From the NCBI GenBank assembly GCA_964445305.1, contig CAYUKK010000022.1:3174-67173 (forward strand): a stretch of 64,000 bases of DNA, read 5' to 3'. The position numbers were made by a program, and so were the translations under genes. Origin of the DNA: an uncultured Eubacteriales bacterium. Lineage in GTDB: Bacteria; Acidobacteriota; Aminicenantia; Aminicenantales; UBA8522. The notes under the pieces were generated by a model. It saw only the letters and a list, made by a program, of their open reading frames with translations. It did not search any database and had not been told where the DNA came from. Every line of letters starts with the position of its first letter. Positions within the stretch are counted from its first letter, which is position 1. Positions 8,413 to 50,632 of this stretch are shown in pieces.

Positions 8413-9186
8413 TCAAGCCGTTTTTGGGGGCGAAAAACAGAGCGGACCGAGGGCTTCCTGGAGCGGCCGGATATCCGTCGCCGCATATCCCAGATGGCTG
8501 TGCTGGCGCCACCCCTCGGCGTACTCAAACCGCCCCGACATGGCCCCGACTTTCCGGCTCATGTCCTTCATCGTGATGAGATAGGAATCCAGGCCCTGGC
8601 TTTTGTCCAGCCAGTCTTTCTGGCTGGCATGATGAGCCAGGAAATTCGCCTTTCGGTCAATGACCGAGGTAATGTCCACATAAAATTCTGGAACGACGGG
8701 CTCCCTGACCATATCCGTCAAGCCATAGGGAAGAGCATGGTAGAGAGCCGTGTCTTTGAGAATGGGGGGCCGCGGTGGGTTGGTGTCGTAATTGCGCATG
8801 GTCCGGACAAAAAGCGCCGTCGTGGCAATCCTGGCCGCGTTCATGTGATCCTCCATATAGTCCCGCAACGACAGGGTCAGGACAAGGTCAGGCTTGACTT
8901 CCCGGATGACGGCCGCTACCCGGCTGATGAGGTCCTGAGTATAAAAGACAGCCAAGTCGTCGACGATGCTCTCGTGATAGACAGCTCCGATGGATGAAGC
9001 AGCGCGGATACTCTCCTCCCGTCTGATACGGATGATTTCCTCTTTCGGGTGGACTTCTGTGCCGCAACTTCCGTTGGCGATATTCATGTAGTGGAGCTCA
9101 TGACCGCTATCCTTAAGGAGAAGCAGCGTTCCGCCCATCATGAACTCAATATCGTCAGGATGGCTACCGATGGCGAAAATAACCAT
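8413..9186 (-). CDS. PIG-L/LmbE family N-acetylglucosaminyl deacetylase
   Basis: N-terminal IFAIGSHPDDIEFMMGGTL is the PIG-L signature (HPDD). Length 257 aa, typical for the family. Confidence 0.8.
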   Translation of the reverse strand: MVIFAIGSHPDDIEFMMGGTLLLLKDSGHELHYMNIANGSCGTEVHPKEEIIRIRREESIRAASSIGAVYHESIVDDLAVFYTQDLISRVAAVIREVKPDLVLTLSLRDYMEDHMNAARIATTALFVRTMRNYDTNPPRPPILKDTALYHALPYGLTDMVREPVVPEFYVDITSVIDRKANFLAHHASQKDWLDKSQGLDSYLITMKDMSRKVGAMSGRFEYAEGWRQHSHLGYAATDIRPLQEALGPLCFSPPKTA

Positions 9187-9799
9187 CTTCCCTCCTCAGT
9201 CCATCTATGCTTTTAGCCGCCGCTTCCTTCCTCATGGCGACTTTGACTCTCCTGCCACTCCTCTGCCCCGACAAGAGGAATGATCCAGCATAGGCCGCGG
9301 CGACTTTTTCGAAAGCGGCAATCATGAGCTCAACATGCCTCTCCGTGTAAACGGGGTGAGTGAAAAAGGAAATGGTCCGGTCGCTCAGCCAGTGAGCAGT
9401 TGGGCAACGGACGGCCGAATAATCGACCCGACGCGCCGGCAGATTCCAGGAGGCAAACCTTTCAGGCTCAGCCAGTCCGATGGCCGACTGGACTTCGGTC
9501 ATCCGATAGTTAAACCCGACACGAGTATGGATGTGCATCAGCTTGGATTCAAGCTCGAGAAGGTTAAGTCTTTTCTGCACGTCATAACCATGGTCCCGGA
9601 ACGACCGGCAGCGCCAGGCAAGGTCCTCGTCATCGGTGATGACAGCGCCTCCTTCGCCGGCCGTCGTAAAATGCTTGCTCTGGCAAAAGCTGCCGGGGAC
9701 TGGGGATAACCTCTTCCGACCGCAACCAAACCCTTCCCTGGCAAGGCGGCTTTCCGCGATTCCACCAAACCCGACAATGGCGTACCGAATGGCCCTCAT
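9164..9799 (-). pseudogene. truncated DegT/DnrJ/EryC1 aminotransferase (C-terminal half only), apparently fused to a Gfo/Idh/MocA-type N-terminus
   Basis: Residues ~20-190 match the DegT C-terminal half (SFCQSKHFTTAGEGGAVITDD PLP-lysine motif; GFNYRMTEVQSAIGL). The ~150 N-terminal DegT residues are missing. The first 20 aa (MRAIRYAIVGFGGIAESRLA) look like a Gfo/Idh/MocA Rossmann N-terminus. The 3' end reads through into the PIG-L gene. In-frame stops lie immediately upstream of the ATG. Confidence 0.5.
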
Positions 9800-9915
9800 A
9801 GGACTCTCTCAGTCTTACCCAGCCGCACCGAAAAGCGCGACCAGATTCCCAAGTTTATTCAAGCTGGCGAGATGATGTCAAACCCGGGTTGCCTCATGAG
9901 AAAATGTACCCAATG

Positions 9916-10251
9916 GGTCCCGAAATTGCCGATCAAAGCACCCGACGGGTCCTCTCGTGGTTCACCCCCGGCCAGGCTCGGAGTTGGGATTGCGAAGCCC
10001 GCTCGTTTCCCCAGCGAGGAAACTCGCTCCGACGCAGCCTTCGCTCTTCTCTCGCTTGGCTCGAAAAACCATGCCCGCTCAGGCTTCGACGGGCTTTCTC
10101 ACCCCAGCCCCTCGCCTGTTTCCCCCAATTCACTAAGGCGAATTAAAGGGGCCTAGATCAAACATCGGGAGAGTGCATGTGGAGGCTCGGGGTTGGGATT
10201 GCGAAGCACGCTCGGGTCGGCGGGCCCCCGAACCACGCCACCCCTCGGGTG
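9916..10251 (+). repeat. structured non-coding repeat, copy 1 (left inverted repeat)
   Basis: Intergenic. Reverse-complement matches 29695-30003 at roughly 93% by manual alignment (about 20 mismatches over ~310 nt plus one 26-nt indel at 10211-10236). Contains a ~31-bp internal direct sub-repeat (9969-10001 and 10180-10210), a GAAA-tetraloop hairpin AGCGAG-GAAA-CTCGCT (10012-10027) and near-palindromes ACCCGNCGGGT at both ends (9939-9949, 10239-10249). Confidence 0.7.
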
Positions 10252-10411
10252 CGGGCGTGTTAATTTAGGTTTCTTTACTGCGGGAACTTCAACCATGCGT
10301 CCAGGCCTCTGCCTTCAGGATGTCAAGTGCCCCAATACGTCATCATTACTTAAGTTTTTCTGCTTCCTGAGGACCTTGTGGGCTGATTGGATAGTTGATA
10401 ATACCGCCTTC

Positions 10412-11818
10412 TCAGAGGAAGGGTAGGTACTTTCGAACCTCGAAGTCGCTGACTTGTTTTTCGAATTCGCGGGAGACGTTGATGTTGTATTCTTCTATTT
10501 CTGCCTTCTTATTGGCGATAAACGTCTTGAAGATATGGTCGCCCAGCGTTTCCCGCATCAGCTCACTTTTTTCCATCAGCTTGACTGCTTCCTCGAGGTT
10601 CCGGGGAAGAACATGGATGTCCAATTTTTTTTGTCTGGCGCCGGACATCTTATAGATATTTTCTTCCACCGGGTCGGGAAGAGGATAGCCTTCCTTGACT
10701 CCTTTTAGCCCGGCCATGAGCATGGTGGCAAAAGCCAGGTAGAGGTTGCACGCCGGGTCGGGCGAGCGGAGCTCAACCCGGGTCGCCGACTCTTTGCCCG
10801 GTTGGTACTCGGGCACGCGGATGTAGGCCGACCTGTTCCTTTGTCCCCAGGCGATGTAAACCGGAGCTTCATAACCTTCGATCAAACGCTTATAGGAATT
10901 CACCCACTGGCTGAGCACGGCTGAAATCTCCCGCGCGTGTTTCATCAACCCGGCCATGTAATGGTAAGCGAAGTCGGAAAGGTGGTACTTGTTGCGGGGG
11001 GCAAAAAAGATGTTTTTCCCTTCCTTCCAGATGGACTGGTGGACATGCATGCCGCTGCCGTTCTGACCGTTGAGGGGTTTGGGCATGAAGGTAGCATGGA
11101 GGTTGTGCATGCGGCATACCTTCTTGACCATGTACCGGAAGAGCATGCCGATGTCGGCCATGTCTAGGGCATTCTGGTATTTCAAGTCAATTTCATGCTG
11201 GCCGTGGGCGACCTCATGGTGGTCGTATTCAGATTCGATGCCCATCTTCTTGAGGAGGAGCTGGACTTCCTTACGGATGCCGCCGTGCTTTCCGCTAAAG
11301 AAATAGCCACCGACGTCCGTCAAGCTTGTGTCCCGGTCGCTGGGGAAAATGAAAAACTCGAGCTCTGGCCCGACTTTGAAATCTTCCACTCCGTATTCTT
11401 CCCGTGCGCGCTGGAGTGTTCTCTTGAGGATGGAGCGGGAGTCCCCTTCGTAGGGGCGGCCTTCTGGGGTCAGGATGTCGCCGAACATGATTGCTTCTCG
11501 CCAGCGGATTTCCTCAGAAAAGCCGACATACTCCCACGGCAAGACACGGAAGGTCCGTGCTTCAGGCTTGATGATCAAATCGCTTTCTTCAATGCGCACA
11601 AACCCCTCGACCGATGAACCGTCAAAGCCCTTGCCCTCGCGAAAGGCTTTTTCCAGCTCCTCGCTGGGAAAGGCGAAATCCATCGGCCGACCGAGGATGT
11701 CGGGGAAATGGAGGCGGATAAATTCCACCCGGTTAGCCGGGTTGAGGACATACTCAAGGACTTCCTCCTCCGTCTCAAAGCCGTACCCTTGGTCAGCCGG
11801 TCTTAAAGGTTTAGTCAT
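10412..11818 (-). CDS. glnA: glutamine synthetase type I
   Basis: GS beta-grasp N-domain. Catalytic-domain signature KPLNGQNGSGMHVHQSIW. 468 aa. AAAGGAGG RBS. Confidence 0.9.
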   Translation of the reverse strand: MTKPLRPADQGYGFETEEEVLEYVLNPANRVEFIRLHFPDILGRPMDFAFPSEELEKAFREGKGFDGSSVEGFVRIEESDLIIKPEARTFRVLPWEYVGFSEEIRWREAIMFGDILTPEGRPYEGDSRSILKRTLQRAREEYGVEDFKVGPELEFFIFPSDRDTSLTDVGGYFFSGKHGGIRKEVQLLLKKMGIESEYDHHEVAHGQHEIDLKYQNALDMADIGMLFRYMVKKVCRMHNLHATFMPKPLNGQNGSGMHVHQSIWKEGKNIFFAPRNKYHLSDFAYHYMAGLMKHAREISAVLSQWVNSYKRLIEGYEAPVYIAWGQRNRSAYIRVPEYQPGKESATRVELRSPDPACNLYLAFATMLMAGLKGVKEGYPLPDPVEENIYKMSGARQKKLDIHVLPRNLEEAVKLMEKSELMRETLGDHIFKTFIANKKAEIEEYNINVSREFEKQVSDFEVRKYLPFL

Positions 11819-29514: not shown

Positions 29515-29694
29515 AGAATAAGGTTAAAGGCAAGAATATTGAGCTGGATGGGTCAAGAGGACTATGAAAATTGGGATTGCGTCCCTTTTCTCCCGACACC
29601 GTAAGCTAACGTGGCGCTCCCTAAGTCTTCCGATAGAGAATTCTTCTCGAGCGAGAGGGATTTAAGTTGGCTAGAGATGATGAGGATGGCGAGT

Positions 29695-30003
29695 GCACCC
29701 CAGGGGTGGCGGGCTTCGCCATCCCAACCCCGAGCCTCCACACGCACTCTCCCGATGTTGGATATAAGGCCCTTTAATCTGCTTTAGTGAATTGGGGGGA
29801 ACAGGCGAGGGGTTTGGGTGAGAAAGCCCGTCGAAGCCTGAGCGGGCAGGGTTTCTCGAGCGAAGCGAGAGAAGAGCGAAGGCTGAGTCGGAGCGAGTTT
29901 CCTCGCTGGGGAAACGAGCGGGCTTCGCCATCCCAACCCCGAGCCTGGCCGGGGGTGAACCACGACAGGACCCGTCGGGTGCTTTGATCGGCAATTTCGG
30001 GAC
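29695..30003 (-). repeat. structured non-coding repeat, copy 2 (right inverted repeat)
   Basis: Reverse complement aligns with 9916-10251 (see copy 1). Same sub-repeats (29706-29740, 29916-29946 by eye) and the same GAAA-tetraloop hairpin. Lacks the 26-nt insertion present in copy 1. Intergenic between the NTPase and AOR genes. Confidence 0.7.
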
Positions 30004-30015
30004 AATCCGTTCTTC

Positions 30016-30044
30016 TTGTCAGAAAAGAATGGATTTGATATGCT
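30016..30044 (+). promoter_or_regulatory. candidate sigma70 promoter for the AOR operon
   Basis: TTGTCA (30016-30021), 17 nt spacer, TATGCT (30039-30044), 27 nt upstream of the AOR ATG. Directly abuts repeat copy 2. Confidence 0.35.
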
Positions 30045-38370: not shown

Positions 38371-39255
38371 TCAGTCCATCTTGGCTCTGGCGATGTATTC
38401 CTCGAGGCGGTTTTTTTCGGCTGGCGAAAGGCGAGCGTAGGAACGGCTCGCTTTGTATTTCAAAAAAAAGGCGAGTGATTTCTCTTTGTTCCCGGTGCTC
38501 AGATGAGCCAGGCCGAGAAAGAGAAGGGCTTCGTCAAGGTGGCGAAGAAAATTTCCGATAACTCCCTCGGTATAAGCGACCTCTCCATCATAAAGGCGGG
38601 TTGCAAACTGCGTTCGGTATGGCTCCGGGGGCGTGTAAGGGTCATGAGGGTCAAAGCAGTGAACCCAGAGGAACCAGGGTGAGGGCTGATGGGAAAGCCA
38701 ATCCCTGGCTCTCGTGGCCACTTTTTCAGCCCGCCTTTCCCGGCCTTTTTCGATATCCGCCTCTGGCTGGTTGAAATTGTCATCATAAACATCGAAACCC
38801 TGGTCGAGCCCAAAGCGAGATTCCAGGAGAAAACCGCCCACGAAGGCCCCCGCCCGGTACCCCTGGCTGCGGAGGAGCTCAGCCAGGCTGACGAATTCCG
38901 GCTGGACGACGAAATTGGCATTGTCGTGGACCCCATGATAAAAAGGCGTCGTGCCAAGAAGGATGCTGGTGTGGGAGGGCAGAGTTGTTGGCGCGTGGGC
39001 AAAAGCCCGCGTGAAGACGACGCTCTTTTTGAGGAGCGCGTCGAAGTGAGGTGTTTGGAGGTGAGCCTGGCTGTAGAAACTGACCCTATCGGCCCGGAGG
39101 GTATTAATAGTGATGAGGAGCAGGTTGAGCTTGGATCCAGATTGGGGTGAATCACCCGCCGAGCCGGGAAGGAAGAAGGACAAAGCGAGCGGGCTGGAGG
39201 TGACCAGGAGAAATGGCAGAAGGCAAATTACCCAAGAGCGTTTGATGCCAGTCAC
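38371..39255 (-). CDS. sulfatase/alkaline-phosphatase superfamily protein, unusually short with TPR-like tail
   Basis: Signal peptide. LLLITINTLRADRV, FTRAFAHAPTTLPSHTSILLG, DPHDPYTPPEPY and YDGEVAYTEGVIG are sulfatase-family N-domain motifs. Only 294 aa; the C-terminal ~55 aa are non-sulfatase. Confidence 0.55.
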   Translation of the reverse strand: MTGIKRSWVICLLPFLLVTSSPLALSFFLPGSAGDSPQSGSKLNLLLITINTLRADRVSFYSQAHLQTPHFDALLKKSVVFTRAFAHAPTTLPSHTSILLGTTPFYHGVHDNANFVVQPEFVSLAELLRSQGYRAGAFVGGFLLESRFGLDQGFDVYDDNFNQPEADIEKGRERRAEKVATRARDWLSHQPSPWFLWVHCFDPHDPYTPPEPYRTQFATRLYDGEVAYTEGVIGNFLRHLDEALLFLGLAHLSTGNKEKSLAFFLKYKASRSYARLSPAEKNRLEEYIARAKMD

Positions 39256-39371
39256 CTGCTACCTTGCTAGTTAATCAAATAGTCAGCGAGCAGGCGCCGG
39301 GGACGAACCGCGACATGACCCGTCGGGTATTTTTATCGGCCATCTCGGGAACATTCTTCCCGGCCTGCTTT

Positions 39372-50558: not shown

Positions 50559-50632
50559 GGCGGTGTAGCTCAGTTGGTTAGAGCATGCGGCTCATATCCG
50601 CAGTGTCGGGGGTTCAAATCCCTCCACCGCCA
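50559..50632 (+). tRNA. tRNA with CAU anticodon (elongator Met or lysidine-type Ile2)
   Basis: Manual cloverleaf: acceptor GGCGGTG/CACCGCC, D-arm GCTC-AGTTGGTTA-GAGC, anticodon stem TGCGG/CCGCA with loop CTCATAT (CAT), variable GTGTC, T-arm GGGGG-TTCAAAT-CCCTC, discriminator A. G1:C72 argues against initiator. No encoded CCA. Confidence 0.85.

Follow-up and report, generated by a model that had tools for sequence, protein, structure and literature searches.

A repeat in an Aminicenantes contig as a probable decayed member of a nested family of miniature inverted-repeat transposable elements with ends phased to promoters

Miniature inverted-repeat transposable elements, or MITEs, are non-coding, non-autonomous DNA transposons. 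In a stretch of 64,000 nucleotides from an uncultured bacterium of the Aminicenantales (GenBank assembly GCA_964445305.1, contig CAYUKK010000022.1, positions 3,174–67,173; hereafter the window), a repeat at window positions 9916–10251 had been predicted, from the letters of the sequence alone, to be either a structured RNA or a MITE-like element. Comparison of the repeat with its relatives leads us to regard it, with a probability of roughly 85%, as a decayed and recombinant member of a modular, nested MITE family of Aminicenantes, and not as a structured RNA gene. The family would be a new one, of an already known kind of element. The second half of the original prediction agrees well with the relatives, which have terminal inverted repeats (TIRs), 5-bp target-site duplications (TSDs) and no coding capacity, occur in many copies and fall into discrete size classes, while the first half found no backing, as there is no Rfam match, the folding resembles that of shuffled sequences on either strand, and covariation is absent. 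A repeat is indeed present at the predicted place, but the element is longer, running from 9919 to ~10281.

The family is represented by at least 114 metagenome loci matching a 22-base pattern, which include at least 27 different contigs from one metagenome. A stricter pattern, taken from the conserved 5' module, gave matches in two GTDB genomes only, one of which is a Candidatus Aminicenantes metagenome-assembled genome (MAG). Alignment of 108 non-identical left flanks set the left limit of the family sharply at CCC(R)AAATTGCC, 21 nt ahead of the palindrome ACCCGACGGGT. The TIRs of intact members are 17–21 bp long, with the form CCC(R)AAATTGCCGATAG... at one end and ...CTATCGGCAAATTTGGG at the other, and the inverted partner lies at discrete distances in 45 copies. 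The length from TIR to TIR is 133 nt in one copy, 229–231 nt in 23, 262–341 nt in eight, 430–444 nt in seven and 519–532 nt in three, so that complete copies span 133–532 nt and fall into size classes of ~133, 230, 340, 435 and 530 nt. Exact flank repeats of at least 5 nt (5–6 nt) abut the TIRs in 25 of the 42 non-redundant complete copies, compared with 2.5% of 2000 mismatched flank pairs. The duplicated target sequences are variable, with a loose TNNNA pattern.

The shortest form is made up of a TIR, a central GC-rich hairpin (GCACCCGACGGGTCCTGTCGYGGTTC ACCCCC GAACCACGCCACCCNTCGGGTGC), a right subterminal spacer of ~75 nt and the second TIR, and the two arms of the hairpin are directly joined in the shortest members. 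The 230-nt form (type I) has a palindromic insert of ~82 nt within the hairpin loop, and the form of ~340 nt (type II) has a different loop insert, which is the core found in the long copies of the window. In the forms of 430–530 nt, one or two more palindromic elements are nested in the right arm; the inner nested element is ~95–100 nt long, with its own inverted ends, CCGAGACGCT and AGCGTCTCGG, and GGTCGGC flanks, and some carriers have a third insert. A complete type I copy of 231 nt forms one end-to-end hairpin (z=−7.45 as DNA). As read from the aligned copies, the hairpin loop has repeatedly taken up more small palindromic inserts, giving rise to the size classes. In the mechanism that we propose, a transposase encoded elsewhere would bind both TIRs, excise or copy the element, and insert it at a 5-bp staggered cut. 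The hairpins of the copies would then reflect inverted-repeat ancestry, with no RNA function, and the features of a MITE family would explain every hairpin and near-palindrome that had been noticed in the repeat. Two peculiar members were also seen. A GTDB MAG labelled 'uncultured Eubacteriales' has, at the start of a contig (L007, 1–420), a member with a different core (…GTCATTGCGAGCGTTAGCGAAGCAATCCC…), which could be due to mis-binning or to horizontal spread of the family. In addition, contigs L121 (reverse complement, 1–80) and L122 (1–60) have a common alternative left junction, GCAGCGCTTTCATACA|TGCCGATA, with a TIR that is 9 nt shorter and with right flanks that differ; this junction may be the end of another element inserted into the TIR. 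A nested-insert polymorphism between these two contigs was rejected, since the differing right flanks indicate that they are not orthologous.

Within the 64-kb window, three copies of the family are present (Table 1). The long repeat copies A (9917–10211, +) and B (30003–29709, −) are inverted relative to each other and 93% identical over 295 nt, and the first 55 nt of the repeat are found a third time at 39350–39296 (−), in relic C. When 45 complete family members were compared with the window by BLAST, their matches at copy A formed two clusters, at 9913–10127 and 10182–10281. The inverted partner of the left TIR of A, CTATCGGCAAATTTGGG, is present at the opposite end of complete copies; in A itself, the right hairpin arm is followed by a decayed stretch to ~10281 and then by no right TIR. 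The left hairpin arm of A pairs with 10230–10252 in the minimum-free-energy fold. In copy B, the right arm lacks its initial 27 nt (TCGGGTCGGCGGGCCCCCGAACCACGC, 10212–10238 in A). Near-palindromic motifs had been reported at both ends of the repeat, and they are found there, as ACCCGACGGGT at 9940–9950 and ACCCCTCGGGT at 10240–10250, but one base away from the positions given and, for the second, as a mere 4-bp stem. Relic C sits between trpS and a sulfatase gene. Relatives with an 84%-identical TrpRS have no such relic downstream of trpS, although their spacer is too diverged for base-exact comparison. Their decayed or lost ends indicate that A, B and C are immobile relics.

Each long copy has two units of the 28-nt sub-repeat GGCTCGGRGTTGGGATKGCGAAGCMCGC, R1 and R2, which are 209 nt apart (four matches, versus none in 100 shuffles). 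A direct sub-repeat of ~31 bp at both ends of a ~175-bp core had been described before; it is real in both copies, but its length is 28 nt and that of the core 181 nt. The 28-mer is single in 35 related copies. Among the copies listed, R2 is found only in the orthologues of A (L001, L002), the orthologues of B (L003, L004) and the independent copy L073, and one further copy, L101, has the 58-nt module of this sub-lineage without R2. It follows that R2 arose later, as a 24-nt duplication between GCTCGG microhomologies. The presence of the sub-repeat at both ends of the core is, as judged from these sequences, a secondary feature and not one that defines the family. A CRISPR-like array was set aside, as it does not agree with the 209-nt spacing and the presence of just two units.

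Copy A is a mosaic of two kinds of sequence. Positions 9919–10002 are 83% identical to the orthologous copy in the sister-strain contig L001 and 96–98% identical to copy B (98% for 9919–9974); on the glnA side, window positions 10003–10420 are 99.5% identical to L001. Synteny breaks exactly at the element (window 9919–10420 versus L001 11400–12010), with an exchange point at ~10002/10003 inside the MITE, and the 3' edge of R1 is the recombination breakpoint. To the left of the element, multi-haem cytochrome genes are present in L001, as opposed to a truncated DegT-like open reading frame (ORF) and PIG-L genes in the window. Unrelated left flanks together with the hybrid identity point to a homologous exchange inside the element, by which different chromosomal contexts were joined. 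As to the history of copy A, a type II element of the 340-nt class would have gained the 58-nt module and the secondary duplication R2 of 24–28 nt; thereafter the right end would have disappeared, and homologous recombination with another copy would have replaced the left 84 nt. Being repeats, the copies could serve as substrates for rearrangement in general. Exact-protein look-ups of the glnA and aldehyde:ferredoxin oxidoreductase neighbours led to contigs of the same or sister strains, several of which terminate inside the repeat, as is expected of a multi-copy sequence. The family accounts for the synteny break beside glnA as well as for contig breaks in related assemblies. The DegT-like ORF beside copy A (9164–9799, −) encodes 211 aa and matches only positions 169–241 of the 360-position DegT/DnrJ aminotransferase profile; its N-terminus contains, by eye, the Rossmann-like MRAIRYAIVGFGG of the Gfo/Idh/MocA type, and the ORF looks like a fusion or deletion remnant.

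Several results nevertheless weigh against the assignment to a MITE family. A TSD was looked for at copies A, B and C, and none was detectable. Among the matches listed, the fetched loci (850 kb), the window and viral contigs yielded no autonomous element combining the same TIRs with a transposase. A joined-flank search for an exact pair of filled and empty alleles gave one artefactual self-match only, so that the case for mobility is built on TIRs and TSDs and not on observed transposition. Finally, some of the copies may give rise to an RNA product. The search for a parent covered several kinds of signal. There were no TIR pairs 550–6000 nt apart in the fetched loci, and when ORFs of at least 250 aa from these loci were clustered, only syntenic orthologues, and no multi-copy genes, were obtained. 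A Pfam scan of 29 window proteins detected no transposase and no Y1 transposase domain, and a scan of viral contigs for the TIRs gave 10 matches, all of them by chance and without the rest of the element. Candidate parents are the IS1380 family and the Tn3-derived TIMEs, whose duplications of 4–5 bp agree with the 5-bp TSD of the present family. The 5'-CC termini, which are typical of the IS1380 family, serve as a lead only, whereas the ends of the Tn3 family, which start with 5'-GGGG and are ~38 bp long, do not fit the present TIRs; for either parent, no transposase partner was found in the fetched loci or among the window proteins. A search of the literature gave no description of this family.

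The ends of the family stand in a fixed phase with promoters. Of 134 non-identical ends with a flank of at least 120 nt, 35 have an outward TTGACA match (at least 5/6) that begins 13 or 14 nt beyond the tip, compared with a mean of 0.65 per position for −35-like hexamers at other offsets. After clustering of the flanks at 80% identity, 39 of 132 independent ends have a −35 box at 12–15 nt, where 2.6 are expected (Poisson P ~4e-32), and the phasing is found in every subtype. A −10-like hexamer follows 16–18 nt after the phased −35 box in 22 of the 39 clustered ends; before clustering, it follows 22 of 38 phased hexamers, versus 7 of 56 hexamers at other offsets. In the position-frequency table of all flanks, the same signals appear as TTG at +13 to +15 and as T-A-(A/T)-A at +36 to +39, the latter being part of TAtAaT (+36 to +41) in a position matrix. 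The hexamer is present at the left end only in eight of the 42 complete copies, at the right end only in six, and at both ends in three. Most phased ends (26/32) point towards an ORF with 120 codons or more whose start is within 400 nt, typically at a distance of 40–105 nt. Copy B follows the rule, the −35 box of the oxidoreductase promoter starting 14 nt past its left tip, but copy A breaks it, with its nearest promoter-like site 37 nt from the tip.

The sequence between tip and −35 box is not conserved and the TSD abuts the TIR, which indicates that the promoters belong to the host and not to the element. A uniform tolerated zone would produce a step rather than a 2-bp peak; hence, either a transposase that chooses such targets or selection for an effect of the tip on the promoter is suggested. 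Similarity between flank and TIR shows a weak peak (5.15 versus 4.26 matches of 17), driven by TTG. The phasing itself is computed, and its cause is what we infer. One explanation, which we consider tentatively and at clearly less than even odds, is that the family is placed with base precision, the TIR tip coming to lie 13–14 bp upstream of the sigma-70 −35 hexamer, through a transposase that reads promoters or through selection on the tip. The transposase might recognise the hexamer (TTGAC), perhaps as a mimic of TTGCC in its own TIR, or its target might be promoter DNA with RNA polymerase bound to it; on the other view, the tip might be a mobile upstream promoter element retained by selection. 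A fixed distance from core promoter elements is also characteristic of the yeast element Ty3, whose integration sites are the start sites of Pol III, but element class, enzyme and kingdom are different, and targeting in the present family is deduced from the positions of surviving copies. In L008 (2950–3130; an Aminicenantes MAG) and L073 (3660–3760; a metagenome), members of different subtypes precede one orthologous gene with its promoter, and the stretch between −35 box and tip is unrelated as well; this suggests that the promoter received separate insertions, or that the element was turned over in place. A literature search for promoter-phased bacterial MITEs found no description.

Compatible with a MITE origin is the further possibility that many members, copy B perhaps among them, now serve as co-opted upstream promoter modules, which we consider rather unlikely, at about one chance in a few. 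The A/T tract at the TIR tip would then act as an UP-element-like or factor-binding site ~50–58 bp upstream of the start site, selection would maintain the copies there, and the phased −35 boxes with their in-phase −10 boxes, which mostly face ORF starts and are seen at both ends, in all subtypes and at copy B, are what such a role would leave behind. However, target-site choice by the transposase predicts the same pattern with no benefit to the host, neither flank has a promoter of this kind in 25 of the 42 complete copies, and the promoter beside copy A is 37 nt away. Whichever explanation is true, targeting or selection, the phasing would be an unusual coupling of bacterial transposition to promoter architecture, and the 13–14-bp spacing provides a natural data set on how a bacterial transposon finds promoters and how mobile DNA becomes upstream promoter sequence.

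In contrast to the MITE assignment, a structured non-coding RNA gene or a cis-regulatory leader, with the hairpins, including the GNRA-capped one, as the functional product, is very improbable. Several hairpins can be drawn in the repeat, copies A and B adjoin gene starts, and the GAAA-capped stem AGCGAG-GAAA-CTCGCT, said to be perfectly conserved at 10012–10027, is in fact identical in A and B, although its position is 10013–10028. Yet the predicted absence of a match to known RNA classes holds, as the Rfam search returns nothing on the repeat at the gathering threshold, and the sole match at a permissive threshold is a THF-II fragment of 14 bits (E=9.3). The folding energy is within the shuffled range (z=−1.60 for the + strand of A, −1.43 for its − strand, and −1.45 for B). 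The RNAalifold consensus of 30 copies omits the GNRA stem and favours a competing GTTTCC/GGAAAC pairing; the six pairs of the stem are invariant in 25–28 of the 30 copies and unpaired in three divergent variants, which have no compensatory change. The substitutions that had looked compensatory are not borne out: the covariation term is +0.17 kcal/mol over the 30 copies, among which low variation limits the power of the test, and the GNRA hairpin is invariant in the type II copies and broken in the three divergent variants. A T/G variant, which may be what had looked compensatory, is common to both sub-repeats within each of the copies A and B, but it is not compensatory, because the sub-repeats are direct repeats, which do not pair. 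Moreover, the family has TIRs and TSDs, its internal sequence is swappable module by module, and copies occur in either orientation relative to neighbouring genes. Stop codons do occur in all six frames of A and B, as had been predicted, yet open stretches of 75–94 codons remain, and computer-called ORFs of up to 94 codons overlap the element. Some other functional candidates were also considered and dropped, namely a tRNA-like fragment or att site, a sigma-54 promoter, the GG-N10-GC pattern of which is not conserved, and a promoter within the element with TAGAAT as its −10 box, for which there is no conserved −35 box. The only Rfam match of the window at the gathering threshold is a lone tRNA gene at 50559–50632 (+).

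Equally improbable is a palindromic element of the REP/REPIN kind or derived from IS200/IS605, moved as single-stranded DNA by a Y1 transposase (RAYT/TnpA) that recognises subterminal hairpins; conserved near-palindromic subterminal motifs near both ends (ACCCGACGGGT and ACCCNTCGGGT), high copy number and intergenic location are reminiscent of such elements, but outer TIRs and 5-bp duplications that vary in sequence are present in this family, and no Y1 transposase domain is present among the 29 scanned window proteins. REP/REPIN and IS200/IS605 elements have neither TIRs nor TSDs and enter the DNA 3' of an invariable motif of four or five nucleotides, which sets the present family apart from them.

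The presumed MITE family shares individual features with several known systems. Correia elements (CREE/NEMIS) of Neisseria are small (~100–160 nt in the basic form), non-coding, high-copy, intergenic elements with TIRs and a TA duplication, which are often found near promoters and fold into hairpins. The present family resembles them in being small, non-coding, high-copy and intergenic, in having TIRs with a short target duplication, in often lying near promoters and in its long hairpin. Unlike Correia elements, it has TIRs of unrelated sequence, a variable 5-bp duplication instead of TA, promoters in the flank at a fixed distance instead of inside the element, and nested growth to ~530 nt. 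The BOX elements of Streptococcus pneumoniae are modular tandem units, boxA-boxB-boxC, without the signature of TIRs plus TSDs; they are similar in that conserved terminal modules enclose variable internal content, resulting in discrete length classes, but there is no sequence similarity, and what varies in the present family are palindromic inserts within the loop of a hairpin. Nested 'Russian-doll' MITEs, known mainly from plants, likewise have one MITE within another, each with its own inverted ends, whereas the host here is bacterial. We know of no description of repeated landing in one hairpin loop, and a literature search gave nothing of the kind for Aminicenantes.

For the window, the analysis removes a candidate RNA gene and explains three intergenic repeats, and for the annotation of Aminicenantes it means that a high-copy repeat family fragments metagenome assemblies and creates spurious short ORFs.

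Table 1. Features of the three window copies, adjoining promoter-like sites and examples of nested members (window coordinates unless a contig is named)
Feature	Position	Strand	Remarks
Copy A (putative MITE)	9919..~10281	+	Type II; left end intact, right subterminal region and right TIR lost
Left TIR of A, CCCGAAATTGCCGATCAAAGC	9919..9939	+	Family boundary in 108 aligned left flanks
Central hairpin, left arm of A, GCACCCGACGGGTCCTCTCGTGGTTC	9938..9963	+	Includes palindrome ACCCGACGGGT, 9940–9950
Sub-repeat R1 of A, GGCTCGGAGTTGGGATTGCGAAGCCCGC	9975..10002	+	Single copy in every type II member
Type II core module of A	10003..10125	+	Near-invariant in ~27 copies; includes AGCGAG-GAAA-CTCGCT hairpin, 10013–10028
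Extra 58-nt module of A, CAATTCACTAAGG...GTGCATGTGGA	10126..10183	+	Among the copies listed, in the sub-lineage A, B, L073 and L101 only
Sub-repeat R2 of A	10184..10211	+	Secondary duplicate of R1 between GCTCGG microhomologies
Central hairpin, right arm of A, TCGGGTCGGCGGGCCCCCGAACCACGCCACCCCTCGGGTGC	10212..10252	+	Homologous to right arm of all complete copies
Copy B (putative MITE)	30001..29619	−	Same sub-lineage architecture as A
Parts of copy B	left TIR 30001–29981; R1 29945–29918; R2 29736–29709	−	
Right side of copy B	hairpin remnant 29708–29695; decayed right TIR 29639–29619	−	Right TIR TCTCTATCGGAAGACTTAGGG
Relic C (putative MITE)	39349..39231	−	Left TIR, hairpin arm and partial type I core; diverged, right-truncated
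Sigma-70-like promoter TTGTCA-17-TATGCT	30016..30044	+	Aldehyde:ferredoxin oxidoreductase gene, ATG 30072
Promoter-like site TTGACA-18-TAAACT	9852..9881	−	Truncated DegT-like ORF
Nested inner element, examples	L040 2125–2565; L058 1284–1730; L041 153–695		

Apart from the repeats, the window is an ordinary piece of chromosome, with glnA, type IV pilus/secretion genes, ligA, a polX-like polymerase gene, pfk, tilS and asnB. The closest named homologues of the window TrpRS are 69–80% identical and come from Candidatus Aminicenantes/Aminicenantales MAGs. The sulfatase ORF next to relic C (38371–39255, −) encodes 294 aa here, versus 718–725 aa with TPR repeats in L137 and L138. The relic contains the GTG predicted as the start of this ORF, together with its first ~8 codons (MTGIKRSW), and the ATG of the relatives is not conserved.

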